Origin: Terriglobales bacterium
GTDB lineage: Bacteria > Acidobacteriota > Terriglobia > Terriglobales > Acidobacteriaceae
Direction of reading: 5' to 3'
Assembly (NCBI GenBank): GCA_035489695.1
Contig: DATHJP010000082.1
Span: 1 to 36,786, forward strand
Length of the DNA stretch: 36,786 nucleotides
Positions within the stretch are counted from its first letter, which is position 1, and each line of letters starts with the position of its first letter. Below are positions 9,846-36,361 of this stretch, in pieces. The position numbers and the translations under genes were made by a program. The notes beneath the pieces are model-generated. The model was not told the origin of the DNA. It was given only the letters and a program-made list of their open reading frames with translations, and did no database searches.

Positions 9846-10430
9846 TTGATCATTGTTCGAAAAAATGTCGCAGGGCTAAGCGAGATCGCTTTGGCGCGAT
9901 TTGTGACTCGTGCCCGCCTCGCCGCCCGTTTGCATGGTGCGGTGAACGTGCTGCTTACCAGCAACTCGGAATTGCGAGCATTGAACAGCCGCTTTCGCGG
10001 AAAAGACCGGCCCACCGATGTGCTGTCCTTCCCGCCAGTCTTCGGACTGGGGAATGCATTCGCCGGCGATGTGGCGATTTCAGCAGAGATGGCGGCCCAT
10101 AATGCGCGTCGGCTCGGACATTCACCAGCGGAAGAGGTTGAAATTCTGGTGTTGCATGGACTGTTGCATCTCGCCGGGTATGACCATGAGCGCGATCATG
10201 GCGAGATGGCGCGCACAGAAGAGCGCTTGCGGAGGGCTCTGCATCTGCCAGCAGGCCTGATTGACAGAAGCAGCCAGCCGCAAGCGAATGGCGCCGAACG
10301 CAAGGCGCGTTCACCGATTACCACGATGCAACGAAAAAGTGTACGCAAGCGCGTCGCCCAATCTGCTTCTTCAAGCAATAAATTTGCGATGGCAAGAGCC
10401 AGCAAACGCCGCGCAACGCGGGTACGATGA
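9846..10430 (+). CDS. ybeY: rRNA maturation endoribonuclease YbeY with a basic C-terminal extension
   Basis: TTG start. It has the zinc motif HGLLHLAGYDHE. About 54 residues extend beyond the usual YbeY end. Confidence 0.85.
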   Translation: MIIVRKNVAGLSEIALARFVTRARLAARLHGAVNVLLTSNSELRALNSRFRGKDRPTDVLSFPPVFGLGNAFAGDVAISAEMAAHNARRLGHSPAEEVEILVLHGLLHLAGYDHERDHGEMARTEERLRRALHLPAGLIDRSSQPQANGAERKARSPITTMQRKSVRKRVAQSASSSNKFAMARASKRRATRVR

Positions 10431-11692
10431 ACTTCGCCATTGCCATCGCGATTGTGGGGCTCCTGGGCGCGCTGACCCTCGTTTCCTACGTCGACCGGCT
10501 CTATACCGAGATCGGTAGATTCCTGTCCCGTGAATTTCAGGACAACCTCAACGCCTTTGAGCTGAAGGTCGAGCCCAAACTTGGCGTGAGCCGGAACCGG
10601 GCTGCGCTTTCCATGGCGATTCTGACGCAATTGATCACCGCTTCAATCGCTTTGCTGTTGGGCTACGCCGTATTTAGAGACCAGGATTGGAGCGGACACG
10701 AGATTCTGGAAATCATCTTGAGCCTCATCCTGATCGTCATTGTGTTCAACCGCTTTTTGCCTTTTGTATTCTTCTCGCGCACGAAGGGTCAGTGGCTTGC
10801 CCGCTGGACGCTGTTGCTGCGAATTCTTATTTACGTCGTCTTGCCCGTAACCCTGGTGTTGGGCTTTTTGCAGTCGGTCGCAGCGTTGACCCGGGAACAT
10901 TCAGAGGAGCAGCCCGAGACCCACACTGAAGCAGTGGACGCGCTGATTGAGGCAGGCCGGGAAGAAGGTATTCTCCACGAGAGTAATCGCGATTTAATCC
11001 AGTCAGTGGTGGAGTTCGGCGAGAAAACCGTCCGGGAAGCCATGAAGCCGCGGCCGGAAATTGTCGCCGTCCCTACCAACACCACGGTAGAACAATTCAT
11101 CGAACTGTTGCGTGCCAAGCCATTCTCTCGGGTCCCGGTTTTCGACGGAACCATTCACAACATCGTAGGCATCGTCCACGCCCAGGACGTGCTACAAGTT
11201 CCAGACAGCGAAGCTCACACCCGGACCGTGGACTCGCTGATGCGCAAGGACGTGTATTTTGTCCCCGAAAGCAAGCTGGGCAGCGATTTGCTTCGCGAGA
11301 TGCAGAACAACAATATCCGCATGGCCATTGTTGTCGACGAATATGGCGGCGTCGCAGGACTGGTGACCATCGAAGACCTGGTAGAAGAAATTGTCGGAGA
11401 GATTCGCGACGAACACGAAAAAGCTGAAGTCATTCGGGAAAACGAGCATTCCTATATCGTGCCGGGCAACATGGACGTGGACCGGCTGGGTGAACTGCTA
11501 GGCGTCCGTCCCGAGGATAAAGAGTCGGCCACGGTAGCAGGACTGGTAAGCGAACTAGCCGGTCGCATTCCGCGAAAGGGCGAAGTGATCGAAGATGACG
11601 GATTGCGTTTCGAAGTCCTGGAGGCGACGCAGCGGCGCGTGGAGCGCGTGCGAATCTCGGTGGCCCAACCCAGACAGATGAAGCTGATATAG
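10427..11692 (+). CDS. CNNM/CorC-HlyC family membrane protein (TM region, CBS pair, CorC_HlyC domain)
   Basis: The N-terminal half is multi-TM. A CBS-pair region (VREAMKPRPEIVAV...) is followed by a C-terminal CorC/HlyC-like transporter-associated domain. The start overlaps the ybeY stop (ATGA). Confidence 0.8.
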   Translation: MNFAIAIAIVGLLGALTLVSYVDRLYTEIGRFLSREFQDNLNAFELKVEPKLGVSRNRAALSMAILTQLITASIALLLGYAVFRDQDWSGHEILEIILSLILIVIVFNRFLPFVFFSRTKGQWLARWTLLLRILIYVVLPVTLVLGFLQSVAALTREHSEEQPETHTEAVDALIEAGREEGILHESNRDLIQSVVEFGEKTVREAMKPRPEIVAVPTNTTVEQFIELLRAKPFSRVPVFDGTIHNIVGIVHAQDVLQVPDSEAHTRTVDSLMRKDVYFVPESKLGSDLLREMQNNNIRMAIVVDEYGGVAGLVTIEDLVEEIVGEIRDEHEKAEVIRENEHSYIVPGNMDVDRLGELLGVRPEDKESATVAGLVSELAGRIPRKGEVIEDDGLRFEVLEATQRRVERVRISVAQPRQMKLI

Positions 11693-11701: not shown

Positions 11702-12640
11702 ATGTCTTTTCGCTCCGGATTCGTTTGCATCCTCGGCCGTCCCAACGCCGGCAAATCAACTTTGTTGAACAAACTCGTAGGCCAGAAGCTGGCGATCATC
11801 AGTCCCAAACCGCAGACTACGCGTAATCGTATTCTCGGGATCGTGCACATTCCCAAAAAAAAGGGAAGACCGGCAGCTCAGGTTATCCTCATTGACACTC
11901 CAGGAGTGCATACCCCGGACAGTTCGCTGGGGCGGAAAATGATGGGAGATGTCCGCGATGCTATGCAAGGCTGCAACCTCGTTCTCTGGATAGTGGATGC
12001 GACACGAAAGCATTCGGCTGACGATCAGATCGTGCTCGACATTGTGCGAAAGTCAGGAACGCCGGTATTTCTGCTGCTGAACAAAATTGATTTGCTGCGC
12101 GAAAAAGGAAAGCTCCTCCCCGTCATTGAGGCATACCGCAGTCTGTACCCTTTCAAAGAGATCATCCCAATGTCTGCGCTGAAAGGTGAAGGTCTCGATG
12201 TTCTCCTGGACAAACTGGTCGAAAACCTGCCGGAAGGGCCGCGTTATTTTCCAGATGACCAGGTAACGGATCAGCCCATCCGCTTCATGGTGGCTGAGGC
12301 TATCCGCGAGCAGGTCTTGATGGCGACCAGCGAAGAGGTGCCACACGCCACCACCGTTCTAATCGAGCAATTTGAGGAAGGGGCAAAACTGACACGCATC
12401 GCGGCCGCGATCTACTGTGAACGCGAAGGGCAAAAGAGAATTCTGGTTGGCAAAGGCGGACAGATGCTAAAGAAAATCGGTACAGCCGCCCGTTTGCAGA
12501 TCGAAACAATGGTGGGCACGCGAGTGTTTTTGGAGCTTTTCGTGAAGGTCAGGCCGGACTGGCGGGAGTCACACGGTTTCGTACAAGAGTTGGATTGGCG
12601 ACGTGAGTTGGCGCTTCTGGCAGGACCGGAAAAGACCTAA
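11702..12640 (+). CDS. era: GTPase Era
   Basis: Has G1 GRPNAGKST, G3 DTPG, G4 NKID and a C-terminal KH domain. Confidence 0.95.
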   Translation: MSFRSGFVCILGRPNAGKSTLLNKLVGQKLAIISPKPQTTRNRILGIVHIPKKKGRPAAQVILIDTPGVHTPDSSLGRKMMGDVRDAMQGCNLVLWIVDATRKHSADDQIVLDIVRKSGTPVFLLLNKIDLLREKGKLLPVIEAYRSLYPFKEIIPMSALKGEGLDVLLDKLVENLPEGPRYFPDDQVTDQPIRFMVAEAIREQVLMATSEEVPHATTVLIEQFEEGAKLTRIAAAIYCEREGQKRILVGKGGQMLKKIGTAARLQIETMVGTRVFLELFVKVRPDWRESHGFVQELDWRRELALLAGPEKT

Positions 12641-14572: not shown

Positions 14573-16817
14573 GCTGGACAACGATAGGCACTGAAATGTT
14601 TTCGGAAGCCACCGGCAACTCAACTACAAACTTGGTTCCCACTGGCCGGTTTTCCTCTACTCGAATCGAGCCGCGATGGTCTTCGATGATGCGGTTCACG
14701 ATGGCCAAGCCCAAACCTGTCCCTCGTTTCTTGGTGGAGAAGTAGGGGAGAAAAAGCCGCTCCTTTAATTCCTGCGTGACACCATGGCCGGTATCGGAAA
14801 CTGCGACCTCGATGGCATCGCGACTGGCCACCAGGGATGTGGAAATCTGAATCTCGCGCAACATCGAACCCTGCATAGCTTCGGCAGCATTGTCGACCAG
14901 ATTGGCCAATGCCCGCTTCATAGCTTCCGGGTCAGCCATTACGCGTGGCAGATTCGGCGCCAGAAAAGTCTGTACGCGGATGTTATCCAGGCGGCCATTG
15001 AACATGGCCAGCGCGCTCTCCACAATGGAATTGATGTTGGCAGGCTGAGGCTGGGCGGTCGGAAATCGCGCCAGAGTTGAAAACTCGTCCACCAGAGTAC
15101 GCACCGTTTCCACGGATGCGGCAATAGTTGCGGCACAGTCATCGAGCACGTGGCGCGACCCCGGATCCAGACGCGTACCACGCTCCAGATGCCGCCGGAT
15201 GCGTTCCGCAGAGAGCGCAATCGGCGTGAGCGGATTCTTTATCTCATGAGCCACGCGGCGTGCCACCTCACGCCAAGCAGCTTGCTTCTGAGCCTTCAAC
15301 AGATCGGACAAATCTTCAAATACCAGAACATATCCCAAACTCTGACCCTCATGCTGAAGAGTCGCCACCGTGACCGCGACATTAAGTTTCGCCGGCTGCA
15401 GAACCATTTCCAACTGTGTAGTGGTTGTGCTCATGCGCTCAGCACGCCGCAGCAGTGGCTCCAGATCCTCAAGGATGTCGGCGGCGAACAAGTCACGAAG
15501 TTCAGCGCCGATCAATCCCTCGAGCACGCTGGATTCCGCTCCCACCGGATGGAACATACGCAGCAGCGCATGGTTCAGGTGGGTAACCCGGCGGTTCGCA
15601 TCCAGTGAGAGCACGCCGGTAGGAATGCTCTCCAGGATAGTTTCGATGTGTCTGCGTCGCTGCTCCAAAGCGACGTTGGCGGCGCCAAGATCGCGACTGG
15701 AAGCCTCAATCTGTCGTCGGCTCGCTTCCAGGTCCTCGGCCATCCGGTTGAACGATCGCACCAGATCTCCGATCTCGTCGGCCGCCCGAATCTCTACCCG
15801 GTAATCAAGTCGGCCGCGTGAAATCTCCTGCGTCGCTTCAGCCAGCGCGACTACTGGACGCGTAACCAGTTTGGAGAGAAACAGCGCCAGCCAGGTGGTT
15901 GCGAAAAGCACCAGGACCGTCAGCAGGAGCAGCAGCCCCATGTAGGTTCGACGCAGAAGTTTGCGTTCGCGACTAAGTTCGAAATATCGCTTTTGGCTGG
16001 TTTCCAGCTGCTTCACTGTCTGAGAAAATTTCTCGGGTAACGGCATAGCGATCAGAATCATGCCGTGCTCTCCTACCGGAGCCGTCCCCAGAATGTAGTC
16101 AGTCTGTTCCCAACTTAAATGTACGGGAAGGTCCGACGTGATTCGCTCCCAGGGGATCTTGGATTTGAGCAACGGCCAGGGAGCTGGGGCGCCGAAGCTG
16201 GCCTCGGCATTTCCGTCCTGAATGGCCAACGCGAACCCGCCTTGCAGAGTGAGTTCATGTTCTCGAAACTGGTTCATCACAACCGAAAAACTGTGTCCTG
16301 AAAAAGCATGTTGAGTCTCTGCCGAGGAGGCAATCGAATTAGCTTCGGAACGCGCGTTCTGCGCCGCGTACTTCGAGAGTAGCGACGCCATGGCCGAGGT
16401 GTCCTCGCGCACTTCTTCCACTGGCCGCGAGAACCACTTGTCGATGGATCGGTTCATCAGCCCGTAAGTGAACCAGAACATCACAATCACGGGAAGCAAG
16501 GAAAGCATGAGCCCGCCAACTACCAGGCGAGTTCGGAATTTCGATCCCAGAACGCCCAGCCGCCGTTCCGCAAAAAGCTTCAGCAGATTGCGGGCTAACA
16601 CGAAAGTCAACGCTACAAAGAGGAGAAAGATAACGGCCGAGAGCGCGGCAAAGAACAGGAGTTGCTGATTGGTGTCAGGGTTCAGAAACGGCAGATCGAA
16701 AGAAGACTGTGAGAGAAGCAGCCCAAACAGCAGCAAGATCCCGATAACCAGCAGGATAATAGCTTTCTTGCGGCCTGATGTTTTTCCTGCTGGGCGGATT
16801 GGGTTGACCGTGGACAC
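14565..16817 (-). CDS. ntrY: sensor histidine kinase, NtrY-like (N-terminal TM bundle, HAMP, PAS, HisKA, HATPase)
   Basis: GTG start, 750 aa. The segment GSKFRTRLVVGGLMLSLLPVIVMFWF is typical of the NtrY N-terminus. It has H-box VAHEIKNPLTPI plus DTGHGV and GTGLGLAIV boxes. Confidence 0.8.
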   Translation of the reverse strand: MSTVNPIRPAGKTSGRKKAIILLVIGILLLFGLLLSQSSFDLPFLNPDTNQQLLFFAALSAVIFLLFVALTFVLARNLLKLFAERRLGVLGSKFRTRLVVGGLMLSLLPVIVMFWFTYGLMNRSIDKWFSRPVEEVREDTSAMASLLSKYAAQNARSEANSIASSAETQHAFSGHSFSVVMNQFREHELTLQGGFALAIQDGNAEASFGAPAPWPLLKSKIPWERITSDLPVHLSWEQTDYILGTAPVGEHGMILIAMPLPEKFSQTVKQLETSQKRYFELSRERKLLRRTYMGLLLLLTVLVLFATTWLALFLSKLVTRPVVALAEATQEISRGRLDYRVEIRAADEIGDLVRSFNRMAEDLEASRRQIEASSRDLGAANVALEQRRRHIETILESIPTGVLSLDANRRVTHLNHALLRMFHPVGAESSVLEGLIGAELRDLFAADILEDLEPLLRRAERMSTTTTQLEMVLQPAKLNVAVTVATLQHEGQSLGYVLVFEDLSDLLKAQKQAAWREVARRVAHEIKNPLTPIALSAERIRRHLERGTRLDPGSRHVLDDCAATIAASVETVRTLVDEFSTLARFPTAQPQPANINSIVESALAMFNGRLDNIRVQTFLAPNLPRVMADPEAMKRALANLVDNAAEAMQGSMLREIQISTSLVASRDAIEVAVSDTGHGVTQELKERLFLPYFSTKKRGTGLGLAIVNRIIEDHRGSIRVEENRPVGTKFVVELPVASENISVPIVVQHA

Positions 16818-16930
16818 GCTGATAATGATCCCTCTCGAACCGAATCATCCAGACATAAGTGCCGGGGGCTGAGCGTTCATTATAAGCCGGACGTGCATTT
16901 ATCCACGAACGCAGCGAGCAGTCGAACCCA

Positions 16931-16958
16931 CTGACTACTGCCCACTGGCCACTTGTTA
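16931..16958 (+). repeat. heptad array J: CTGACTA CTGCCCA CTGGCCA CTTGTTA
   Basis: Four in-register CTGNNNA heptads lie between two minus-strand genes. Confidence 0.6.
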
Positions 16959-16973
16959 TATGTTTGAGATTGC

Positions 16974-17789
16974 CTATCTCCACGTCGATGCTTGTGGGAG
17001 AAATGATTGCAGCGGGCACGTCTCACAGCGCGGTTGTGACTTCAAACAATAGTTCTTGCCCACGCCCACGATCAGTCCGTGCATCTCATTGTAGATCTGA
17101 ACCAGGGCCGAGCGTTTAGCGGTACTCATTGCCGACGGTCGGTGCGCGGCCCCGACAACTCTGTTTTCAAGTGTCAGTTTCTTACCATGTGCACCCGAAT
17201 CCCTGCGAGACGTACCGCCGCCCTCTGCACTAGCAACTAGGGCGCGTTGAAAAAGTTGGCGGATCTCATCATACGAAGCGTTCGCCGGCAGAATCCCGTG
17301 ACGAGCCAGGATGCGGCGGGTGTAGGTATCGACCACGAATACCGGATGCTGACCCGCGTAAAGCAAAATGGAGTCTGCCGTCTCTGGCCCGACCCCATTC
17401 AGTGCTAGCAATTCATCGCGGAGTTTTTCCGTAGGTTGGGTGAACATGCGATCCAGTGAACCGCCGTAGTGTGCGTCAAGAAATGCCACAAAAGTTTTTA
17501 GCCGACGGGCTTTCTGGCGAAAATACCCCGAAGAACGAATCAACGTTTCCAGCTGCGACAGCGATATATTTCGAACCCCTTTGAGATTCAGCACACCGGC
17601 CGCTCGCATGCTGCACAGAGCAATCTCTACGTTTGTCCACGCGGTGTTCTGTGTCAGATAGGCTCCAACAATGACTTCAAAACGAGTGCGGGCGGGCCAC
17701 CACTGCTGCCGACCCCAGGCGCGAAACAGCGCTTGATAATAGGCTCTGACATGTTCGTGTTGCGAGGGATTGCGCATCTCACCCATCAT
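16974..17789 (-). CDS. HhH-GPD base-excision DNA repair protein (endonuclease III-related)
   Basis: Contains WWPARTRFEVIVGAYLTQNTAWTNVE and the helix-hairpin-helix LNGVGPETADSILLYA. A Cys cluster CLKSQPRCETC lies near the C-terminus. Confidence 0.75.
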   Translation of the reverse strand: MMGEMRNPSQHEHVRAYYQALFRAWGRQQWWPARTRFEVIVGAYLTQNTAWTNVEIALCSMRAAGVLNLKGVRNISLSQLETLIRSSGYFRQKARRLKTFVAFLDAHYGGSLDRMFTQPTEKLRDELLALNGVGPETADSILLYAGQHPVFVVDTYTRRILARHGILPANASYDEIRQLFQRALVASAEGGGTSRRDSGAHGKKLTLENRVVGAAHRPSAMSTAKRSALVQIYNEMHGLIVGVGKNYCLKSQPRCETCPLQSFLPQASTWR

Positions 17790-26411: not shown

Positions 26412-27242
26412 TTATTGGCCGTTAGACGCGGCCACCGCGCCTTCAAGAACGATACTCACGTCGCTGCCCTTGCCCACACCCAGGATTTGCGCGGCTGAGC
26501 CGCGATTCGCCGCAATCTCCAGGTATCCCATGCTTCCCAGAATCCCGAAGACTTCGCCGGGCGTGCCCGACGCGTATGCTGCCTTGATTTCCGTGATTTC
26601 CCGCTTGCCGATGACTATCTTGAACGCCGGCGGCTGCGACTGGAAGAGGGCAGGAACATCAGCGGGCGTGATGTTGGTGACCAGATTTCCAAAGCGATCT
26701 ACTTTCAGCACCACGCCGCGCAGCGAATTTCCATCTGCCGGCTTGGGTTTGGGCGCATTGAAGCGCACAAAATCTTGCACTTCCTCGCCAAACTTAGCTG
26801 CTTCTACTCCTTTGGCTAAATAAGCCGCCACCGGAGCGAAAATGTCGCGGCCATGGAAAGTGTTGCTGACCGGCTGTAGAAAATAATGTTCTCCGGTGAC
26901 GTGGCGAACGTTAAAGCGTTCTTCCCGCGCGTATACGAGAGAGAGCACGCCGTTGTCCGGCGCAACGAAATGAAACCGGTCGGCGGTGACCACAATCGGA
27001 CGCCGTGCTGTACCCACACCCGGATCCACCACCACCAGATGCACGGTGCGGGCAGGAAAATAGGAGTAAGCCTGGGCAACGGTCAACGCACCGTCGAGGA
27101 CATCAAAAGCCTGCACCGAATGACAGATGTCCACGATCTCGGCCTCCGGAACGATGTTCAAGATGACGCCCTTGATCGTTCCTACAAAGTGATCGTTGAG
27201 CCCAAAATCCGTGGTCAGAGTAATGATCGGCCGCTGCGCCAA
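26412..27242 (-). CDS. S-adenosyl-L-methionine hydroxide adenosyltransferase family protein (DUF62)
   Basis: N-terminus ITLTTDFGLNDHFVGTIKGVI and overall length are typical of DUF62 / SAM-cleaving (chlorinase/fluorinase-related) proteins. Confidence 0.85.
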   Translation of the reverse strand: MAQRPIITLTTDFGLNDHFVGTIKGVILNIVPEAEIVDICHSVQAFDVLDGALTVAQAYSYFPARTVHLVVVDPGVGTARRPIVVTADRFHFVAPDNGVLSLVYAREERFNVRHVTGEHYFLQPVSNTFHGRDIFAPVAAYLAKGVEAAKFGEEVQDFVRFNAPKPKPADGNSLRGVVLKVDRFGNLVTNITPADVPALFQSQPPAFKIVIGKREITEIKAAYASGTPGEVFGILGSMGYLEIAANRGSAAQILGVGKGSDVSIVLEGAVAASNGQ

Positions 27243-27349: not shown

Positions 27350-28606
27350 TCATTCGTAGCGCAGCGCTTCCACCGGATCCATGCGGGAAGCTTTTAACGC
27401 GGGGAAAAATCCAGAGATCATCCCTACCAGCGAGAGAATGGCAAACGAAATTGCCATCACGGTCATCGAGGCATGCAGGAAAATGTCGCCCTCGTGGTTG
27501 TCCGTCTTATACAAGTCACTATAAAGGGGCATAGGCGGAATTACCCAGGTGAGAAGGACTGCCACTGCCATTCCAATCAGGCCGCCCGCGAAAGTCAGCA
27601 CCAGAGCTTCCAGCAGGAATTGCACCAGGACATGCCGGGGACGTGCTCCCAGCGCTTTCCGCAGCCCAATCTCGCGCGTTCGCTCCGTCACTGAGACCAG
27701 CATGATGTTCATCACGCCGACCCCACCTACGCCCAATGTCACCGCGCCAATCAGGCCAAGAACCGCCTGCAATCCCAGCGAAAAAGCATTGATCATGGCG
27801 CCATCTTCGATGGTGTCCCACGCCGGCGTTGCCTTTTCATCCTTGGGATCGAAGAGATGGCGGCGGGCTACAACTTCGCGAACCGCCGCCAGCGCCTTCT
27901 TATTTAGCTCAGGAGCGGTCGGCTGGAAAATGATCATGTCCGGATCGCGGATATTTTTCAGATCGCGAAAAACCTCGAAAGGAATAAAACCGTTGTTGTT
28001 GTCCGGACCGTTGTACATCGAATCCTGAATCTTGTTGCGCAACACGCCGATGACTTCGAAATCGAGACCTCCGATGCTTACGTTCTGTCCAATCGAAGGC
28101 GCGCCTTGAAATACTTTCTTGTTGGCGTCGTGTCCCAGGATCACTACCCTGCGATGTTCCACAAAATCGCTCTCGCTGAAGTAGCGGCCATCGTCGATGT
28201 CTAGCTTGCGCATTTGGCCATAGGGCATTTCCACGCCTCGTACCTGCACCGAGACCACTCGTGTACCCACTTTGAATCCGAAATCGCGAACCACTTCAGC
28301 GCTCACTGCACGCACAATCGGAACTTCGTCACGAACGGCTTCCACATCCTCATATTTGAAGGTGACTGCCTTCCCTGCGCGCTGTCCACCCGCCTGAAGA
28401 CTTGTTTGTCCCGGCCAAAGCACGATCACGTTATTGCCCATGTTCATGAAGGCATGCAGGACGCTGCCGCCCAATCCCTGCCCATACGCCAGCAGGATCA
28501 CCACCGACGCCAGTCCCCACACAATCCCCAGCATAGTGAGGACAGACCGCAACTGGTTACGCCTGAGTGCCTGCCAGCTTTGCGAAATGAGTTCTTTTAA
28601 GAACAT
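27350..28606 (-). CDS. MacB-type ABC transporter permease (MacB periplasmic core domain plus FtsX), no ATPase domain
   Basis: 418 aa: TM1, a large periplasmic domain, then three TMs. It has the FtsX block GVMNIMLVSVTERTREIGLRKALGA and ends VEALRYE. Confidence 0.85.
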   Translation of the reverse strand: MFLKELISQSWQALRRNQLRSVLTMLGIVWGLASVVILLAYGQGLGGSVLHAFMNMGNNVIVLWPGQTSLQAGGQRAGKAVTFKYEDVEAVRDEVPIVRAVSAEVVRDFGFKVGTRVVSVQVRGVEMPYGQMRKLDIDDGRYFSESDFVEHRRVVILGHDANKKVFQGAPSIGQNVSIGGLDFEVIGVLRNKIQDSMYNGPDNNNGFIPFEVFRDLKNIRDPDMIIFQPTAPELNKKALAAVREVVARRHLFDPKDEKATPAWDTIEDGAMINAFSLGLQAVLGLIGAVTLGVGGVGVMNIMLVSVTERTREIGLRKALGARPRHVLVQFLLEALVLTFAGGLIGMAVAVLLTWVIPPMPLYSDLYKTDNHEGDIFLHASMTVMAISFAILSLVGMISGFFPALKASRMDPVEALRYE

Positions 28607-28613
28607 AAAAACA

Positions 28614-28753
28614 GTGGTCAGTGGCCAGTGGTCGGTGGCCAGTAAAACCAGGAACTAAGAACCGACAACTGCGAACTAAGAATTAAGACCCAAACTAGGA
28701 ACTCCGAACTGTGTCGGTTTTTACTGGCAACTGACCACTGGCCACTGACCACT
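28614..28753. repeat. heptad array E: 20 in-register heptads whose ends form a roughly 35-bp imperfect inverted repeat
   Basis: The left arm (28614-28649) pairs with the right arm (28716-28752). There are 20 perfect pairs, then 14 more with one G-T, one mismatch and one bulge. The 66-nt centre is made of NNNGAAC-type heptads. Confidence 0.85.
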
Positions 28754-28758
28754 CGTTC

Positions 28759-29775
28759 TTACTGAATTTCAATATTCCCCGATCCTGTCTCTACTTCCAC
28801 AGGCACTCCGCCGCCGCGGACTTTCCCTCGAATCTGTTTTCTTCCCACCGTGCCTTGCACTGTGACCGGATGATCCACAGAAATTGATCCAGAACTGGTG
28901 TGGGCATCCAGATCGAAGGCTGCGTCAGAGGGAAATCGAAGTTGAACGCCTCCCGATCCCGTATGCACAACCCATGCGCCCGTAGGATCGCCTTCGGCAC
29001 GGATGGTTCCGCTGCCCGCCTTCGCCTCGAGTGAGCCACGTACGCCGCGAAGTTCCATACCACCCGAGCCGGTATCGGCTCGCACTGCTCCAGGGGATGT
29101 TTGCTCCAGCGTAATGTGTCCGCTACCGGTATTCGCTTCAAACCCACCCCCGATTGCAGTAGCATGAATCGATCCGCTACCGGTTCTGGCTCGCACGTTG
29201 CCTTTCACGCGGTCGATCTGAACATCGCCCGAGCCCGTGTCAGCGCGCACGGTGTCGCCGATATCGGTAATCTTCAGCTCGCCGGATCCAGTTCCCACCT
29301 CAATCGACCTGCGAATACCTTCCACGGTCTGATGGCCGGATCCAGTGTGTGAGTGCAATTGCGTCTCTCCCGGAACAACCAGTTCGTAGCTGATGGATAC
29401 ATTTTGGCGCAACTCCGAATCATCGATGTGGCCGATGCGAATGTCATTGCCGCTCTGCAGGATCGGAGGATTGGCCTGCAGTTGTTTCACCTTCTCCTCA
29501 CCGTTGCCTCCCAGCCAGTCTCGTGTCTTGATGTGTCCGGTCACCTGCACCTGGTTGGTGGCGCCGGTTCGTATCTGAATGCTTCCGGACCCGGTGCTCA
29601 CGTCCAGATTGACCGGCCCAGTCACCTGTAGGGTTCGCTGGAACGAACCTTCGGCGTAGGCCACCGCCGTCGTCGAGTGAGCGCAAACCAGAATCAAGAG
29701 CAGACATCCCGCCAAACTCCCGGAACCGAACACTCGCCTCAGCAGGATCAGTGAAACATTTCGTCGCAATCGCAT
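28759..29775 (-). CDS. secreted DUF4097 (toastrack-fold) repeat protein
   Basis: Has an N-terminal hydrophobic signal-like segment and about ten TGSG(x)(I/V) rungs at roughly 20-aa spacing. An AGGAGG SD lies 5 nt before the ATG. Confidence 0.8.
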   Translation of the reverse strand: MRLRRNVSLILLRRVFGSGSLAGCLLLILVCAHSTTAVAYAEGSFQRTLQVTGPVNLDVSTGSGSIQIRTGATNQVQVTGHIKTRDWLGGNGEEKVKQLQANPPILQSGNDIRIGHIDDSELRQNVSISYELVVPGETQLHSHTGSGHQTVEGIRRSIEVGTGSGELKITDIGDTVRADTGSGDVQIDRVKGNVRARTGSGSIHATAIGGGFEANTGSGHITLEQTSPGAVRADTGSGGMELRGVRGSLEAKAGSGTIRAEGDPTGAWVVHTGSGGVQLRFPSDAAFDLDAHTSSGSISVDHPVTVQGTVGRKQIRGKVRGGGVPVEVETGSGNIEIQ

Positions 29776-29790
29776 CGTTCCTCCTATTCA

Positions 29791-30723
29791 TTAGTTGATC
29801 TGAACATCGCCAGAGCCGGTATGCACGGTGAGCATCGGACCGCCTCCGCGGACCTTACCGCTGATCGAACGTTGCGCACGTTGCACATTGCCCTGAACCG
29901 TCATGGTCACGGGATGGTCCACTGTGACTGTTCCCGAACCGGTAGACGCTCCCAGATCGAAGGCTGCCTGTGAAGGCAGGCGAAGCCGCACATTGCCTGA
30001 CCCTGTCCTAATATCCCAGATACCTGTCTGGGTACCGTCGATGGTGATATCGCCGCTGCCGGCTTCGGCGCGTACCGTGCCCTGTACGTCGCGAAGCTCG
30101 ATGTTTCCGGATCCGGTGTGAACTCGCACATCCCCGCTACCTTTTGCATTCAGGCGGATGTCCCCGCTGCCGGCTTCAGCGTTGAAGGCACCCGTCACAT
30201 CCTGCGCGTCAATATTTCCGGATCCGGTGTGCGCGTGCAGGTCGCCGTTCAAGTCTTTCAATCGCATATCGCCAGATCCGCTCTCCAGCTCCAGATTGCT
30301 TCGAATACCTTCAATGGTTTGATCTCCTGAGCCGCTGTGGGTGCGCAATCGAGTATCGGCCGGAACTGTTATGTCGTAATCAACGGAGATATTGCGGACA
30401 TTGACGTAGTCAATCCGAATGCTATTGCCGGTTTGGCGAATCGGAGGATTCTTTTCCAATTCGCTGACTTCGCCCTGACGGCCCCCGGAAAACCATTGCT
30501 CGCCAACAAAAATTTTCCCGCTGATGGATACCGTTCCTGCCGGACCACTATGGACCTTGATATCCCCAGAGTGAGTCAGGACTTCCAGGTCCACCGCTCC
30601 AGTAACCTGAAAGCTGCGCTGAAACGACCCTCGAACGGAAGCCGCGGCCGGAAGCGTGCAGCAAAATAAGACCAGCAAACTAAAGCTGAGATAAACCGCT
30701 GAAAATTGAATACGAGATTTCAA
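29791..30723 (-). CDS. secreted DUF4097 (toastrack-fold) repeat protein, paralogue of the downstream gene
   Basis: TTG start preceded by an AGGAGG SD (30736-30731). It has a signal-like N-terminus and about ten (T/A)GSG(D/N)(I/V) rungs. Confidence 0.8.
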   Translation of the reverse strand: MKSRIQFSAVYLSFSLLVLFCCTLPAAASVRGSFQRSFQVTGAVDLEVLTHSGDIKVHSGPAGTVSISGKIFVGEQWFSGGRQGEVSELEKNPPIRQTGNSIRIDYVNVRNISVDYDITVPADTRLRTHSGSGDQTIEGIRSNLELESGSGDMRLKDLNGDLHAHTGSGNIDAQDVTGAFNAEAGSGDIRLNAKGSGDVRVHTGSGNIELRDVQGTVRAEAGSGDITIDGTQTGIWDIRTGSGNVRLRLPSQAAFDLGASTGSGTVTVDHPVTMTVQGNVQRAQRSISGKVRGGGPMLTVHTGSGDVQIN

Positions 30724-30739
30724 GATGTATCCTCCTAGA

Positions 30740-30774
30740 CTAACTACTAGCCACTAATCACTAGCCACTGCCCT
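30740..30774 (+). repeat. heptad array F: CTAACTA CTAGCCA CTAATCA CTAGCCA CTGCCCT
   Basis: Five in-register heptads lie between the permease stop and the SD of the first DUF4097 gene. Confidence 0.7.
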
Positions 30775-32026
30775 ACTCGTACCTCAGCGAATCCACCGGC
30801 GTCATCTCCGCCGCGCGCTGCGCCGGATACATCCCCGCGGTCAACGTAATAATTGAAAGTGTCAGGACCGAAGCAATGATGGAAATGGGGGAAACAATTG
30901 GATGCGGCACGAAGTCTGGCAGCGGGATCACGGTCAGCGCCACACACGCTCCCACTCCGAACGTCAGGCCGAGCACTCCACTCACCACGGTCAGAATCGC
31001 CGACTCCGCAAAAAATTGCCGCAAAATATCCCGCCGAGTTGCTCCAATGGCTTTGCGCACCCCAATTTCGCGCGTACGCTCCGTGACTGAAACCAGCATG
31101 ATGTTCATCACCCCAATTCCGCCCAGGCACAATGTGATAATCGCCACGCAGGCGAAGAAAATCGTGATCACATTGAAGATGTTCTCCACCAGCTTGGCGC
31201 CTTCCATCGTGTCCCAGATGAACAACGCGTCTTTGTCCTTGGCATCGAAGTGGTGAATCCGCCCCAAAGTTCGACGCACTTGCAAAACCGCATCTTCATG
31301 TTCCTCAGGATCAGCGACTTCGAAAACTATATTGTCAAGATAGCCGCGAACGATGCCCGGCTTCTGCGGAGGCGGAAAATCTCGCGCCACCGCCGAGTAT
31401 GGAGCGTACAGATAATCGTTATCCGGCCCGCTGTAATTGGAATTTTGTTTCTTTTTCTGCAGCACACCGATCACGGTGTAGGGAACTCCCTTGATAGACA
31501 ACGCAGCGCCCACTGCAGGTTGTCCACTGAATAATTGCGCGCGGGCGGCATCGCCCAGGATAACTACCCGCCGCGCCTCGCGCTCATCTTCATCGGTGAG
31601 AAGCCGTCCTTCGCTCAACAGCAGAGAACGGAATTGCTGATACGACGGCCACATGCCCACCACACCGCGATTCGCAGAGTTGAATTGGCTGACTTCCGGC
31701 ACGCTGCGTCGCAGTTCCGGACTCACATTCTTGACTTGATAACACTCGTCACGAACCAGCCGGGCATCTTCGATAGTGAGGCTGATTTCGCGTCCTGCGG
31801 CCAGCCCACCCACCTGGGAACTGGTACGCCCGCCCCAGACAATCACCAGGTCTTTCCCCAGAGTCTGCATGCGCTTCTTCGAGTCCACGCTGAAACCCCG
31901 CCCCAACCCGACCAGCAGGATCACCGACGCGATTCCCCACACAATGCCAAACATGGTGAGGAAAACTCGCATCTTGTGTGCCCGGAAGCTCTCCAAGGTC
32001 TGCCGCAGGATTTCGATAACACTCAT
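30773..32026 (-). CDS. MacB-type ABC transporter permease (MacB_PCD plus FtsX), no ATPase domain
   Basis: 417 aa, a paralogue of 27350..28606. It shares the GVMNIMLVSVTERTREIG block with that gene and ends VDSLRYE. Confidence 0.85.
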   Translation of the reverse strand: MSVIEILRQTLESFRAHKMRVFLTMFGIVWGIASVILLVGLGRGFSVDSKKRMQTLGKDLVIVWGGRTSSQVGGLAAGREISLTIEDARLVRDECYQVKNVSPELRRSVPEVSQFNSANRGVVGMWPSYQQFRSLLLSEGRLLTDEDEREARRVVILGDAARAQLFSGQPAVGAALSIKGVPYTVIGVLQKKKQNSNYSGPDNDYLYAPYSAVARDFPPPQKPGIVRGYLDNIVFEVADPEEHEDAVLQVRRTLGRIHHFDAKDKDALFIWDTMEGAKLVENIFNVITIFFACVAIITLCLGGIGVMNIMLVSVTERTREIGVRKAIGATRRDILRQFFAESAILTVVSGVLGLTFGVGACVALTVIPLPDFVPHPIVSPISIIASVLTLSIITLTAGMYPAQRAAEMTPVDSLRYE

Positions 32027-32113
32027 GAATCGGATCTCAAGTCGTTGGCCTGATCACCTACAACTCAGACGCTCGGGAAGGGAAATCGTTAATCAAACCA
32101 GCCTCTAAAGTGG

Positions 32114-32142
32114 CAGAGCCCAAGCCGCCGGCTTGGGCTCTG
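32114..32142. other. 14-bp perfect hairpin in the adaptor-permease intergenic region
   Basis: CAGAGCCCAAGCCG-C-CGGCTTGGGCTCTG. No U-tract follows on either strand. Confidence 0.5.
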
Positions 32143-32168
32143 AAGTTCATGTGCGAGGTCCGACGCTC

Positions 32169-33380
32169 CTACTGCAGCACAACCTGATCGCCTTCCTTCA
32201 ACCCGCTGAGCACTTCGGTCTTGGCCCCATTTGATATACCAATATTGACGGCCATCTTCTTCTTGCCCTCTTTTTCTTTCGGATCCGGCACCTCGACCGA
32301 GGCTTTTTTGTCCTTGTCGTAAATGATCGCGCCTTCTGGAATCTGCAGCACACCCTTGTGCTCGTCCAGAATGATTTCAGCATTCGCAGTCATCGCCGCC
32401 TTCAGTTCGCCGCCGGGATTATTAATCGAGACCCGTACCTCGAACGTGGTTACGTTGTCCTTCTCCACGCCCATGGGCGAGATCTTGGTCACCTTGCCGG
32501 AGAAAGTTTTGTCCTTGAAAGATTCCACTTTAATCCGCGCCGGTTGACCGAGATAAACCTTGCCAATATCGCTCTCATCAACTTTGCCCTTGACGTAAAC
32601 CTCGCTGGTATCGCCCAAAGTCATGATCAAAGTAGCGGACGAACCGAGTACCAGGATGGAGCTCACCGCATCCCCGCGCTCCACATCCCGCGAAAGCACT
32701 ATTCCGTCGATTGGCGATGCGATAGTCGTGTAACCGAGCTGTTCTTCAAGTTGCTTTAAGTTGGCGCGGTCTTGCATCACTTGCGCCTGGGACTGCCCGA
32801 TCTTGGCCTTCAAAACGATAAGCTGCGCTTTCGACACGTTCTGTTTGTTCAGCGCCATTTCGTAGTTCTTCTGCGCATCGTCGAGAGCCGAGGCCGATAC
32901 CACACCTGCTTTGGCCATGCCCGAAGCCCGCTCGTAGGCGCGCCTCAACAAAGGCACATCCGGACCTTCGGCATCCACTTTGGCGCGCTGCCAGTCAGCC
33001 TCTGTGCCTTTCAAGCTGGCATCGCTGGCTTCCAATTGCGCCCGCGCCTGGGCAACACGCGCTTCGATCTCTTCTTTGTCGAGTTCGGCGAGCAGCTGCC
33101 CTCGCTTCACCTTGTCGCCGGCATCCACATAAAGTTTCTTGACGATCCCGCTGGCTTTGGATTTGACCTCCACCTTGGTGATGGGCTCAACTTTTCCCGT
33201 CGCCACCACGCTCTTGGCCAGATCGCCTTTCTCTACTCTCGCCAATTTCGAAGGATCGATCTTCGTGCCGCCGCGAGTAAAGGCGTACAGCACCACCGCT
33301 CCCAGCAGGATGATCCCAACCACGATGCCGCCATAAATCAGCCGTTTACGCTTTTTCTTATGATTACCGTTGCCGTTCAC
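32169..33380 (-). CDS. MacA/HlyD-family periplasmic adaptor (membrane fusion protein)
   Basis: The GTG at 33380 is preceded by an AGGAGG SD; the longest ORF starts at TTG 33395. It has a basic N-terminus plus TM, a lipoyl-like domain, a coiled-coil hairpin (ARVAQARAQLEASDASLKG...) and a beta-barrel domain. Confidence 0.85.
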   Translation of the reverse strand: MNGNGNHKKKRKRLIYGGIVVGIILLGAVVLYAFTRGGTKIDPSKLARVEKGDLAKSVVATGKVEPITKVEVKSKASGIVKKLYVDAGDKVKRGQLLAELDKEEIEARVAQARAQLEASDASLKGTEADWQRAKVDAEGPDVPLLRRAYERASGMAKAGVVSASALDDAQKNYEMALNKQNVSKAQLIVLKAKIGQSQAQVMQDRANLKQLEEQLGYTTIASPIDGIVLSRDVERGDAVSSILVLGSSATLIMTLGDTSEVYVKGKVDESDIGKVYLGQPARIKVESFKDKTFSGKVTKISPMGVEKDNVTTFEVRVSINNPGGELKAAMTANAEIILDEHKGVLQIPEGAIIYDKDKKASVEVPDPKEKEGKKKMAVNIGISNGAKTEVLSGLKEGDQVVLQ

Positions 33381-33648
33381 ATCCGCCTCCTGCAATTAAG
33401 TCGTTGGGACCCGAGTGGTGTTACGCAATCAGTTTGCGTTTTGTTCCGAAGATTCAGAACCAGGATATTGCCCGTTACTGCCCGCGCCCATGCATTAGAC
33501 CGGCAAACCCCGGAAATGAAAGCAGAAAATCTGATGTTTGAGTCGACGAAAAGAATCTCAAAGCAGGCAGTTAGTCACCGCTACTTCCACTATTATGCCC
33601 TATTCTACAACAGCTTAGCCTCGGGATAACTGCTTACGCCCTTTGGAA

Positions 33649-33666: not shown

Positions 33667-35037
33667 ATGATTGCATTTGTGCTGCTCCGGGTATTTTTGA
33701 TTCTTCTCCTGGTAGCAGCCAACGCTTTCTTCGCCGCAGCCGAATTCGCTCTGGTGAGCGTGCGCGATACGCGCATCCAGCAGCTCATCGAAGCTCGCCG
33801 CATCGGTGCCCGCATTGTCCAGAAACTCCACCGCAATCTGGACGAAGTGGTCAACGGCGTCCAACTGGGAATCACGGTCACCAGTCTTACCCTAGGCTGG
33901 GTAGGCGAGCCGCTGTTGGCCCGCATGGTTGAAGGTTCCATCGGACGCATTCCGCATGCCGCACTTTATTCCCACGGCATCGCTATCGTAGTTGCCTTCG
34001 CTCTAATCACATTCCTGCACGTGATCCTCGGCGAACTGGTTCCTAAATCCCTGGCCCTCCAGCGTGCTGAACAAGTTGCCCTGGCCGTCGCTGGCCCCAT
34101 GGACGTTTTCCTCACCGTCAGCCGCCCCTTCCTTTTTGTGATGAGTCGGGCGGCCGGCGTCGTACTCCGTATATTCGGCTCGCGTAAGATTCGCCAGGGT
34201 CCCATCCACTCGCCCGATGAACTCAAACTGATTGTCACTGCCAGCCGACAGTTCGGCCAGATCCCGCCCTTCCAGGAAGAAGTCATTCATCAGGCGCTCG
34301 ACTTGGAAAACATAACGGTGCGCGAGGTCATGGTGCCTCGCCCGGATATCTTTTCGCTCCCCGGAGACCTCACCTTGGAAGAAGCCCTGGGACGCGTGGT
34401 TGAAGAGCAACACTCGCGCATTCCCATCTATGACCCGCAGCGCGGCCCTGAACACATCATCGGAGTGCTCTACGCCAAGGACTTGATGCGTTGGACCCGC
34501 CTGCGTTATACCGCCAACCCCATGCAGCCAGTGTTACCTCGCATCACCAACATGAAAATCAGCCAGATCATGCACGACGTCCTGGTCGTACCCGAAACCA
34601 AAGTCCTCACCGAACTTCTGGAGGAATTCAAACAACGTAAACGCCATCTCGCAGTAGTAGTGGACGAGTTTGGCTCGACCGCGGGCGTGATCACCGTCGA
34701 AGACATTTTGGAACAACTGGTCGGTGAGATCGAAGACGAATTCGATGTCGTCCCACCTCAGCATGGTGCTCTAGAAGGGAAGACCGCCCTGATGCTCGAA
34801 GGCTCAGCCAGTATTCGCGATCTCGAATCACAACATGATCTGTTACTGCCACGCGACGCTGGATTCGAGACCCTCGCGGGATTTGTGCTCTCCCGATTGC
34901 AGCGCGTTCCCAGCATCGGCGACACCTTCGACTATGAAGGTCATCGTTTCACGGTCGCCGAGATGGAAGGCCACCGCATCGCCCGTGTAAAAATCGAAAA
35001 ACTTGAACCCGCACGCCTAGGCCAGGTAGGAGATTAA
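33667..35037 (+). CDS. CNNM/DUF21 family membrane protein with CBS pair and CorC_HlyC domain (hemolysin-family annotation class)
   Basis: Contains DUF21 TM segments (NAFFAAAEFALVS), CBS pair (VREVMVPRPDIF...) and a C-terminal CorC/HlyC domain. Confidence 0.85.
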   Translation: MIAFVLLRVFLILLLVAANAFFAAAEFALVSVRDTRIQQLIEARRIGARIVQKLHRNLDEVVNGVQLGITVTSLTLGWVGEPLLARMVEGSIGRIPHAALYSHGIAIVVAFALITFLHVILGELVPKSLALQRAEQVALAVAGPMDVFLTVSRPFLFVMSRAAGVVLRIFGSRKIRQGPIHSPDELKLIVTASRQFGQIPPFQEEVIHQALDLENITVREVMVPRPDIFSLPGDLTLEEALGRVVEEQHSRIPIYDPQRGPEHIIGVLYAKDLMRWTRLRYTANPMQPVLPRITNMKISQIMHDVLVVPETKVLTELLEEFKQRKRHLAVVVDEFGSTAGVITVEDILEQLVGEIEDEFDVVPPQHGALEGKTALMLEGSASIRDLESQHDLLLPRDAGFETLAGFVLSRLQRVPSIGDTFDYEGHRFTVAEMEGHRIARVKIEKLEPARLGQVGD

Positions 35038-35039
35038 AA

Positions 35040-35177
35040 CTAAGAACCGAGAACCAAGAACTGACAACTGAATTGAATATCCCGAACCCAGACACCCGGC
35101 ACCAACCCGACACCGGGCACCAAGCTGAGATCTGGTCCCTTACTGACAACTGGCAACTGAGCACTGACAACTGATTC
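35040..35177 (+). repeat. heptad array G: CTAAGAA CCGAGAA CCAAGAA CTGACAA CTGAATT ... CTGACAA CTGGCAA CTGAGCA CTGACAA CTGATTC
   Basis: The array fills the whole 141-nt spacer from the CNNM stop to the dppB-like ATG. One phase shift occurs in the C-rich centre. Confidence 0.85.
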
Positions 35178-35178
35178 C

Positions 35179-36096
35179 ATGCTCCGCTACCTCTCCCTTC
35201 GCCTGCTGTACACGTTACCGGTTGTCTGGCTTGTAGTCTCCCTGGTTTTCCTGTTAATTCATCTGGTCCCCGGCGATCCCATCCTGCAGATGCTAGGCGA
35301 AAGTGCTCCAGCGACAGACATACAAGCCGCCAGGCATCAATACGGACTGGACGTCCCGCTTGGCCAGCAATACCTCCACTACTGGAAAGGCGTGCTGCAC
35401 GGCGATCTCGGCCCCTCGGTCCGCTTCAACCAGAGCGTCACCAGCCTGATCGCACAGCGCTATCCATATACTCTGCAGTTGACGCTCGCGGCGCTGCTCG
35501 TTGCAATTCTGCTTTCCGTTCCTGCGGGCGTCCGCTCCGCGCGCCGCCGCGATCGATGGGATGATCGTCTGCTCAGCGTAGTCAGCCTCTTCGGCCTTTC
35601 CTTTCCAAACTTCGCCCTCGGTCCGATATTAATTTTATTTTTCGCCATCAATCTCGGCCTCCTTCCCGTATCCGGCTCCGGAACTTTCGCCCACCTGGTC
35701 CTTCCCGCCATCACCATGGGCGGCGCTTTGGCTGCGATCCTCACCCGCATGGTGCGCACCTCGATGCTGGAAGAACTGGGCCAGGACTACGTCCGCACCG
35801 CGCGCGCCAAAGGACTTTCAGAGGGAACCGTCGTCTACCGCCACGCCTTGCGCAACGCCATGATCCCCGTCATCACCGTCCTCGGCCTGCAATTCGGAGC
35901 ACTGCTCGCAGGCGCGATTGTCACCGAGACGATTTTTTCCTGGCCCGGCATCGGGCGTCTGACCATCCAAGCCATCGGCAATCGTGACTATTACCTGGTA
36001 CAAGGCTGCATCTTGGCCATTGGGCTGACTTATGTCGCAGTGAATTTTCTGACAGATTTGTTGTACTCGGTGGCGAATCCGAGGATACGGCAATGA
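35179..36096 (+). CDS. ABC transporter permease, DppB/OppB type (binding-protein-dependent transport inner membrane component)
   Basis: 305 aa. The N-terminus MLRYLSLRLLYTLPVVWLVVSLVFLLIHLVPGDP and the EAA-loop region YVRTARAKGLSEGTVVYRHALRNAM are typical. Confidence 0.85.
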   Translation: MLRYLSLRLLYTLPVVWLVVSLVFLLIHLVPGDPILQMLGESAPATDIQAARHQYGLDVPLGQQYLHYWKGVLHGDLGPSVRFNQSVTSLIAQRYPYTLQLTLAALLVAILLSVPAGVRSARRRDRWDDRLLSVVSLFGLSFPNFALGPILILFFAINLGLLPVSGSGTFAHLVLPAITMGGALAAILTRMVRTSMLEELGQDYVRTARAKGLSEGTVVYRHALRNAMIPVITVLGLQFGALLAGAIVTETIFSWPGIGRLTIQAIGNRDYYLVQGCILAIGLTYVAVNFLTDLLYSVANPRIRQ

Positions 36097-36221
36097 ACGT
36101 CGCAGCAGGTCTTGCGCTAGAATCTTTACCCGTCTCAGCCCGAGGATTGCCTTCCCTTAGCCGATCAGCGCGTTTAGTGAACGCGTGTGTGACGCACGCC
36201 GCCACCTGTTGGGCCAGAGGG

Positions 36222-36361
36222 GTTAGAGAACCTCAAACCAACCTGTAAACTGAGAACCGAGAACGATGAACTGACAACTGATTTGATGTCTCGACACCTA
36301 ACACCCTGATACCTGTCCCCTGACCGACACTCGACAACCGACAACTGACCACTGATTAATG
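36222..36361 (+). repeat. heptad array H: ...CTGTAAA CTGAGAA CCGAGAA CGATGAA CTGACAA CTGATTT ... ACAACTG ACCACTG
   Basis: About 20 heptads in one register. Positions 36250-36290 are about 80 percent identical to 35040-35080. Confidence 0.85.

Follow-up and report, generated by a model that had tools for sequence, protein, structure and literature searches.

The stretch of DNA analysed here (the window) comprises 36.8 kb of contig DATHJP010000082.1 from a Terriglobales bacterium (assembly GCA_035489695.1) and contains a predicted operon for a MacA-like adaptor, two MacB-type permeases (P1 and P2) and two toastrack proteins of the DUF4097 family (T1 and T2). The five genes are co-directional on the minus strand, in the order adaptor, P1, T1, T2, a hairpin element and P2. 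This arrangement, proposed in an initial annotation of the sequence, was confirmed by open reading frames (ORFs) and profile searches, and Pfam confirmed that the permeases carry the MacB core and FtsX domains and no nucleotide-binding domain (NBD). Three new features were the most robust: the two non-adjacent permease genes were either both present or both absent in related loci, permease pairing was anticorrelated with an ATPase gene in cis, and the toastracks were associated with the adaptor. The features of the locus are as follows.

32169-33395, minus strand: MacA-like adaptor, 408 amino acids (aa); Pfam HlyD_D23 (E = 4e-28), HlyD_3 and Biotin_lipoyl_2
32115-32141, minus strand: GC-rich stem-loop AGAGCCCAAGCC-GGC-GGCTTGGGCTCT, 28 nucleotides (nt) past the adaptor stop codon, read from the sequence
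30773-32026, minus strand: permease P1, 417 aa; MacB_PCD (E = 3e-37) and FtsX (E = 5e-21)
29791-30723, minus strand: toastrack T1, 310 aa, TTG start; DUF4097 (E = 5e-27, 95.2 bits)
28759-29775, minus strand: toastrack T2, 338 aa; DUF4097 (E = 6e-22, 78.6 bits)
28613-28753, no strand assigned: inverted-repeat element built of heptamer repeats, with 35-nt arms and a 71-nt spacer
27350-28606, minus strand: permease P2, 418 aa; MacB_PCD (E = 2.5e-37) and FtsX (E = 2e-21)
26412-27242, minus strand: SAM_HAT/DUF62 gene, flanking the predicted operon at its end
33667-35037, plus strand: CNNM gene, divergent, upstream of the adaptor

Paired permeases and the search for an ATPase

P1 and P2, which are 37% identical to each other, scored above the Pfam cutoffs (MacB_PCD, 129 bits; FtsX, 75 to 76 bits) and aligned end to end with the permease part of MacB, with four transmembrane (TM) helices and the periplasmic core between TM1 and TM2. 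Both proteins begin about 20 residues ahead of TM1, and the MacB model was matched only from position 255-258 on; the alignment of P1 with MacB 5lil (E = 1e-49) was confined to the permease part. An 18-residue block shared by P1 and P2, GVMNIMLVSVTERTREIG, had been taken in the initial annotation as a sign of a LolC/LolE-like heterodimer. This block spans TM2 and the major coupling helix and is near-identical in the homodimeric MacB proteins of Aggregatibacter (5lil) and Acinetobacter (5gko) (PMC5985334); it is therefore family-wide and uninformative on heterodimers, and was rejected as evidence for one.

In MacB, the major coupling helix and the C-terminal minor coupling helix contact the NBD (Greene et al., PMC5985334). 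The major coupling helix of the window permeases, VSVTERTREIGVRKAIGA, was near-identical to that of 5lil and 5gko MacB and was kept in all P1 and P2 orthologues and in distant pairs. Across 22 to 24 orthologues, P1 and P2 averaged 83% identity and exceeded the toastracks in conservation; the coupling helix and the C terminus ranked among the most conserved segments (in P1, 93% versus 83% overall). The motif ERTREIGxRKAxGA and the C-terminal motif PAxRAAxLxP(I/V)EALRYE were kept in ATPase-less P1 and P2 (down to 40% identity) as in single permeases linked to an ATPase. Because the helices that would contact an ATPase are conserved, we infer that an NBD still docks on P1/P2 and is encoded elsewhere.

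None of the window ORFs of at least 150 aa matched Pfam ABC_tran. A hidden Markov model (HMM) of MacB-type NBDs, built from 20 NBDs of distant related loci and run on six-frame stop-to-stop segments of at least 60 aa, gave no match anywhere in the window nor in any P1-P2 locus. The same model matched every canonical relative at 320 to 368 bits, fused MacB included, and as further positive controls the HMM and regular-expression scans recovered the NBDs of canonical relatives and of an unrelated ABC-2 transporter in one related locus (L051). In the operon interval the Walker-A pattern occurred only as two chance strings in pieces of 23 and 25 aa, and the LSGGQ motif was absent from the window. 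The earlier statement that no Walker-A ORF lies between the CNNM and DUF62 genes thus held, and an ATPase in an overlooked frame was rejected after Pfam on the large ORFs, the six-frame HMM and the motif scans had all come up empty. An NBD in cis was likewise found in 0 of about 37 related loci with a permease pair. Genes lying in widened intergenic gaps of relatives were considered as a possible ATPase or energiser and rejected; they encode DUF1330, MFS, amidohydrolase, Ser/Thr kinase, glycosyltransferase and hydrolase proteins. Our literature searches found no description of ATPase-less MacB/FtsX pairs.

A gene for an OppB-type importer permease (window 35179-36096, plus strand) adjoins the predicted operon, and an OppC-type counterpart is present in relatives (L004-L009), in which toxin-antitoxin-like genes lie between the two. 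No gene for an ATP-binding cassette (ABC) ATPase or a binding protein was found within 10 kb of OppB/OppC in the relatives, and so dispersal of ABC components seems to be general in this lineage.

Distribution of the locus and of the permease pair

Homologues of T1 were abundant in Terriglobales metagenomes and metagenome-assembled genomes (MAGs). The contexts of five of them all showed the neighbourhood of the window, and in relatives of at most 74% identity neither permease was present. Among GTDB species representatives, a scan yielded 80 loci, all from Terriglobales/Acidobacteriota MAGs, which were annotated by tblastn with the window proteins and the custom NBD HMM. All 80 represented a single syntenic locus, with OppB and CNNM genes in one direction, followed in the other by the adaptor, P1 (where present), T1, T2 (where present), P2 (where present), SAM_HAT and TPR genes, and then by PilR in the direction of OppB. 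The synteny spans about 70 Terriglobales species. In 67 of these loci the region was complete from adaptor to SAM_HAT. Adaptor and one toastrack alone were found in 30 of the 67 and adaptor with two toastracks in 19; the permeases flanked a single toastrack in 13 loci and two toastracks in 5. Both permeases were therefore missing in 49/67 and present in 18/67 species representatives, and only one permease was found in 0/67. T2 was missing from about 60% of related loci.

These counts bear in opposite ways on two expectations that the initial annotation had raised. The permeases behaved as an obligate pair in all 67 loci. The toastracks did not behave as partners co-conserved with them, since 49 loci kept the adaptor and toastrack(s) without any permease; the toastracks track the adaptor. 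On a quick neighbour-joining tree of four flanking proteins, Fitch parsimony placed the permeases at the root and gave about 6 state changes, with both genes changing jointly each time; recombination among relatives could lower the number of independent loss events. One locus with adaptor and two toastracks (L014) retains the first approximately 20 codons of P1, TILRQTFASFRAHKMRI, at 4914-4988, just ahead of T1, and the last approximately 19 codons plus stop of P2 (...LNSIEALHYE*) at 6935-7012, just after T2. These short in-frame remnants flank the toastracks, which argues that the permeases were deleted in place. In a long-read MAG (L038, 11991-13246), two frameshifts within a span of about 60 nt interrupt P2 and reflect either nanopore assembly error or early decay towards a pseudogene.

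A metagenome scan seeded with P1 orthologues recovered loci from 83% down to 29% P1 identity, and their gene content changed with distance as follows.

P1 identity of at least 72%: adaptor, P1, one or two toastracks, P2; syntenic orthologues
P1 identity of 53 to 70%: P1 and P2 only, with no adaptor, toastrack or ATPase, among unrelated housekeeping genes
P1 identity of 40 to 46%: adaptor, P1, P2, with no ATPase and no toastrack
P1 identity of at most 35%: adaptor, ATPase and single permease, or fused MacB, the canonical form

Two members of the closest class (L090 and L092) had adaptor, P1 and P2 and no toastrack, with a P1-P2 gap of 52 bp in L092. When loci with flanks of at least 1.2 kb were compared, a neighbouring NBD was found in 0/18 loci with paired permeases, whereas an adjacent or fused NBD was found in 17/19 loci with single permeases; the two exceptions were truncated orthologous contigs. 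In all pairs, down to approximately 40% identity, the first gene was P1-like and the second P2-like, and the duplication must therefore be ancient and its order fixed. No alternative energiser was conserved next to the orphan P1-P2 pairs, whose neighbours were unrelated housekeeping genes. Within the P1-P2 family, the toastrack insertion was restricted to the Terriglobales locus. The lack of an ATPase is thus real but not peculiar to the operon; it belongs to a larger, widespread P1-P2 family that mostly lacks toastracks.

Other genes were seen in or near these loci. A second ATPase-less MacB-type pair, 37 to 40% identical to P1/P2, lies at 3195-5692 (minus strand) of L024, where it adjoins the CNNM gene and is co-directional with it; a DinB-type polymerase gene then follows. 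The window holds two CNNM/CorC-type genes, of which one (8699-11692) sits in the usual PhoH-YbeY-CorC cluster and the other (33667-35037) diverges from the adaptor gene and keeps synteny with it across the clade. A cluster of PspA_IM30, flotillin/Band_7 and NfeD genes was found at 1-3900 in L005/L006, some 6 to 10 kb beyond the operon, past OppC and outside the window; in relatives a PspA gene is more than 8 kb away from the operon. These families have been tied to envelope-stress systems by Ravi et al. (PMC11237479); the cluster was not counted as linked because of its distance and the intervening genes.

Adaptor, toastracks and intergenic hairpins

The adaptor scored 181.7 bits against TIGR01730 (cutoff, 94.9) and 165.9 bits against the NCBIfam MacA equivalog model (cutoff, 342), and because the latter score is below the cutoff it is called MacA-like rather than a MacA equivalog. 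Its best PDB match was E. coli MacA (5nik_D; E = 1e-32, residues 16-407), and its layout comprises an N-terminal TM anchor followed by lipoyl, hairpin, beta-barrel and membrane-proximal domains. The adaptor was found in every related locus of the species-representative scan, and its column conservation was 0.914 with permeases and 0.908 without them, a pattern that held in all adaptor domains. No ORF of the outer membrane factor (OEP) family, which would offer a TolC-type partner, was present among the window ORFs of at least 150 aa.

T1 and T2 are 44% identical and contain 10 and 11 to 12 GSG rungs, respectively, in agreement with the roughly ten TGSGxI rungs counted initially; their DUF4097 scores compare with a Pfam cutoff of 22.9 bits. 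In both toastrack families, conserved n-, h- and AxA signal-peptide features precede a conserved mature N terminus, (Q/E)GSF(E/Q)RTxQV(T/S)G, and no lipobox was found in the signal peptides. The signal-like N termini of the initial annotation were thereby borne out as conserved Sec signal peptides, which make a periplasmic location of the toastracks likely. Each toastrack gene also has an AGGAGG Shine-Dalgarno sequence, the strongest in the operon as described before, and none was found ahead of the P1 or P2 gene. A sequence search of the toastracks against the PDB gave no match, and a fold search was therefore needed. The AlphaFold2 model of T1 (predicted local distance difference test score, 90) shows a beta-helix whose N-terminal region is intertwined, and the top Foldseek matches of this model were 4qrk, 3pet, 3lyc and 4opw, toastracks from the Joint Center for Structural Genomics annotated as "putative adhesin"; 4qrk and 4opw are toastrack structures cited by Ravi et al. 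(PMC11237479). Foldseek also matched the T1 model to 7muc_AM, which belongs to the core complex of the Dot/Icm type IV secretion system of Legionella (E = 2e-4, TM score about 0.4), a hint that machines spanning the envelope can include toastrack-like beta-helices among their structural parts.

An exhaustive representative search with the toastrack gave 336 clusters at E = 1e-30 or better, and among the representatives listed three BlaR1-type M56 proteases carry the same toastrack subfamily. In one of them (P0202) the last TM helix is followed by an entire mature toastrack, at the place where BlaR1 has its extracellular sensor domain. Two BlaR1-toastrack genes adjoin BlaI-type repressor genes, and one of these also adjoins a gene for an ADOP-like permease. 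The two BlaI/BlaR1-toastrack loci are L172 (1983-7055; JGI Ga0645781_04750) and L174 (4431-7183), with sensors 38 to 42% identical to the toastracks of the window. In L172 the pair follows an 831-aa ADOP-like permease with duplicated MacB_PCD/FtsX domains, and this locus may encode a signalling system controlling an orphan permease. Outside the synteny block, a toastrack of 46% identity was found 90 bp downstream of an adaptor of 73% identity, on a contig with non-syntenic flanks. Together, the signal peptides, the fold, the BlaR1 fusions and the pairing with an adaptor outside synteny favour an extracytoplasmic binding or sensing role for the toastracks, tied to the adaptor, over a role as cargo.

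The inverted repeat between T2 and P2 has arms at 28613-28647 and 28719-28753, of 35 nt each and 94% complementary, and a predicted RNA fold of -80.1 kcal/mol (z = -8.9). It is built of CAGTGGT-type heptamers (CAGTGGT/CAGTTGT). Similar heptamer repeats, such runs often forming long inverted repeats, occur between genes elsewhere in the window, at 30735-30770 (the P1-T1 spacer), 16810-16980, 35037-35179 and 36096-36359, and at 11938-12022 of a relative (L009) a different heptamer hairpin (GTCGTTG) is found at the corresponding position, directly against the start codon of P2. The large inverted repeat noted initially is thus present, but as a dispersed intergenic repeat and no specific part of the system, and it was rejected as a component; the repeats look like a family resembling repetitive extragenic palindromes or miniature inverted-repeat transposable elements that is dispersed in these Terriglobales genomes. 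The 3' arm ends 6 nt ahead of the P2 ATG and is followed by TTTTT, and a hairpin plus U-run directly ahead of this start codon could lower P2 expression. The stem-loop at 32115-32141 was not called by a terminator scan because it has no T run; it may serve as an attenuator or stabilise the RNA.

Relation to known systems and interpretation

Among the known systems nearest to the operon is MacAB-TolC (5nik, 5lil and 5gko; E. coli, A. actinomycetemcomitans and A. baumannii), with which it shares a full-length match of the adaptor to MacA, permeases that match the whole MacB permease part, and an adaptor gene ahead of the permease gene, as in mac operons. Unlike MacAB-TolC, it has no fused or adjacent NBD and no outer membrane factor nearby, two diverged paralogues take the place of a homodimer with an N-terminally fused NBD, and two toastrack genes are embedded. 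In LolCDE, two paralogous 4-TM MacB-type permeases, LolC and LolE, form a heterodimer that works with a dedicated periplasmic partner, LolA; the lolD gene sits in the operon as well, and the Lol system has no adaptor. P1 and P2 scored 20 to 50 bits against the LolC, LolE and lolCE NCBIfam models (cutoffs, 362 to 540). ADOP permeases (TIGR03434) are acidobacterial MacB_PCD/FtsX proteins described as orphans (PMC3914696) and are a recognised precedent for permeases of this kind. The C-terminal half of the ADOP model was a better match for P1 and P2 than any Lol or FtsX model, and the two permeases share with ADOP the acidobacterial lineage and the lack of an adjacent ABC ATPase. They are not members of that family (125 to 126 bits against a cutoff of 622, model positions about 526-803), ADOP being a single polypeptide of approximately 800 aa with fused halves where the window has separate proteins, and no adaptors or toastracks are described for ADOPs. 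ADOP genes are essentially not known to adjoin an ATPase gene.

Separate permeases of about 419 aa also occur in Spr0693-0695 of S. pneumoniae (5xu1; 5xu1_M matched at E = 7e-38 to 1e-40) and in YknXYZ of B. subtilis, and orthologous adaptors of related loci match Pfam BSH_YknX and Beta-barrel_YknX; in those operons, however, a single permease comes with an ATPase gene of its own (Spr0694, YknY). The toastracks belong to the same Pfam family and fold as those of the Lia and phage-shock-protein systems (LiaG, LiaF, YvlB, VraT; DUF4097/DUF2154/DUF2807), and toastrack genes have also been reported in transport operons with an ABC ATPase and permease by Ravi et al., who argue that the domain is generally intracellular (PMC11237479). 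The toastracks of the window differ in having cleavable Sec signals and hence in being predicted extracytoplasmic; they scored 86 to 95 bits against the LiaG equivalog model (cutoff, 285), and no PspA, PspC, LiaF/LiaI or LiaRS gene was found in the window. In FtsEX-EnvC and YbbAP-TesA, a periplasmic partner, soluble or anchored, receives force from a MacB-fold permease (PMC7668044, PMC12646458); there the ATPase is encoded in cis, and by analogy a toastrack beta-helix would take the place of that partner here. To our knowledge and from the literature searches, this is not a characterised operon type but an uncharacterised variation on the MacAB, or type VII ABC, theme.

The envelope-system interpretation of the initial annotation survives in its absent ATPase, its obligate permease pair and its exported toastracks, and has to be revised in that the toastracks track the adaptor and the shared block is no evidence for a heterodimer. 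We propose that the operon is an envelope module of Terriglobales, carried on the chromosome and inherited vertically, which derives from a MacAB-type tripartite system and in which P1 and P2 would form an obligate heterodimer like LolC/LolE; the absence of single-permease loci and the fixed P1-P2 order speak for such a heterodimer. Its conserved coupling helices, major and minor, would be the docking site for a dimer of an ABC ATPase encoded elsewhere and probably shared, as is MsiK. In Streptomyces, MsiK is shared among sugar ABC importers. ATP-driven movement of the periplasmic domains would act under a hexameric adaptor, which would connect to an outer membrane factor likewise encoded elsewhere. 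The toastracks would be binding or sensing accessories of this adaptor-centred machine, comparable in role to LolA, EnvC or TesA in other type VII ABC systems, rather than obligate permease partners or cargo. An original adaptor-P1-P2 operon would have received a toastrack between P1 and P2, followed by toastrack duplication, after which lineages would repeatedly have lost the permease pair and occasionally the toastracks. Taken jointly, the P1/P2 heterodimer, an ATPase in trans, the MacA-like adaptor and periplasmic toastrack accessories form a reading that we hold with about as much belief as doubt.

Several observations weigh against this joint reading. Since the adaptor is equally conserved without local permeases, its main partner may be other than P1/P2. 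The complete lack of a cis ATPase in about 37 pair loci is unusual if an ATPase is required, and no candidate was found in a search that covered the window and up to 10 kb around each match. Toastracks and permeases have each been lost independently, two strong hairpins (28613-28753 and 32115-32141) lie inside the predicted operon, and nearly all related loci come from MAGs or metagenome contigs. Moreover, the whole 20-kb neighbourhood is syntenic in the clade, so that adjacency alone is weak evidence of function. On that last ground the toastrack genes could be unrelated passengers, a frozen insertion in a pump operon of a highly syntenic region (OppB, CNNM, SAM_HAT, TPR and PilR included), where unrelated genes have entered the operon edges in several lineages and the toastrack insertion occurred at one locus only within the P1-P2 family. 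We consider this very unlikely, because the insertion lies between subunit genes, on the same strand and with gaps of 15 to 150 bp, and is kept in more than 30 permease-carrying lineages; the adjacency of adaptor and toastrack outlives the loss of synteny on both sides, and the ADOP-BlaI-BlaR1-toastrack locus L172 provides a second, independent link between a toastrack and an orphan MacB-type permease. Scarcely more credible, and if anything less so, is that the toastracks are secreted cargo, such as surface adhesins, moved outwards from the periplasm by an adaptor/P1-P2 pump. Signal peptides, the strongest Shine-Dalgarno sequences of the operon and the "putative adhesin" label of the PDB relatives agree with such a role, and in other organisms pumps of the MacAB type carry peptides or proteins out of the periplasm (PMC5985334). 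The role as cargo, one of those offered in the initial annotation, is weakened in that toastracks are kept and conserved in 49 species representatives without both permeases and that the same subfamily serves as membrane-tethered outer sensor in BlaR1-type fusions. A folded beta-helix of about 30 kDa would also far exceed any known MacAB substrate in size.

A more serious competitor, although still an unlikely one, takes the adaptor plus toastrack(s) as the functional unit and the permeases as an ancestral remnant, with the adaptor using a transporter encoded elsewhere. The adaptor is invariably present and equally constrained with or without permeases, adaptor and toastrack alone make up 49/67 species representatives, their pairing persists outside the synteny block, and the adaptor-less orphan P1-P2 pairs (L104-L112 and L122) could serve adaptors in trans. 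Against it stand the strong purifying selection on P1 and P2 where present (83% identity, above that of the toastracks) and the outgroup operons L113-L124, in which adaptor, P1 and P2 occur without a toastrack; the adaptor was therefore linked to permeases before it was linked to toastracks. That the P1-P2 clade has abandoned the ATPase, to act as a passive scaffold or sensor or to be energised otherwise, with the toastracks as ligand-sensing periplasmic partners, seems to us rather improbable. The contrast between 0 of approximately 37 pair loci and 17/19 single relatives with an NBD in cis is what such a loss would leave, orphan status has been described for the ADOP relatives too (PMC3914696), and the fusion of FtsX/MacB-PCD modules with HAAS signalling domains that is reported from Acidobacterium capsulatum (Ravi et al., PMC11237479) indicates that the fold is used in signalling contexts. 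Yet the NBD-contacting coupling and C-terminal helices are highly conserved and indistinguishable from those of ATPase-linked relatives, and no alternative energiser is conserved beside the pairs. The wider version, in which unfused P1-P2 pairs and by extension ADOP are ATP-independent scaffolds or sensors, with toastracks as ligand-sensing partners and the adaptor as constant hub, appears more doubtful again.

Type VII ABC systems (MacAB, LolCDE, FtsEX and YbbAP) are understood as ATP-driven, force-transmitting machines. A large soil-bacterial clade of permease pairs that is perfectly anticorrelated with a nearby ATPase gene sharpens the puzzle of the orphan permeases, namely, which ATPase drives them, or whether none does. 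The toastrack domain, widespread and functionally opaque, gains an extracytoplasmic context beside a MacA-like adaptor and in BlaR1-type sensors, and such predicted extracytoplasmic toastracks run counter to the recent proposal of a generally intracellular domain. Acidobacteria rank among the most abundant bacteria of soil, and little of their envelope and efflux biology has been explored.

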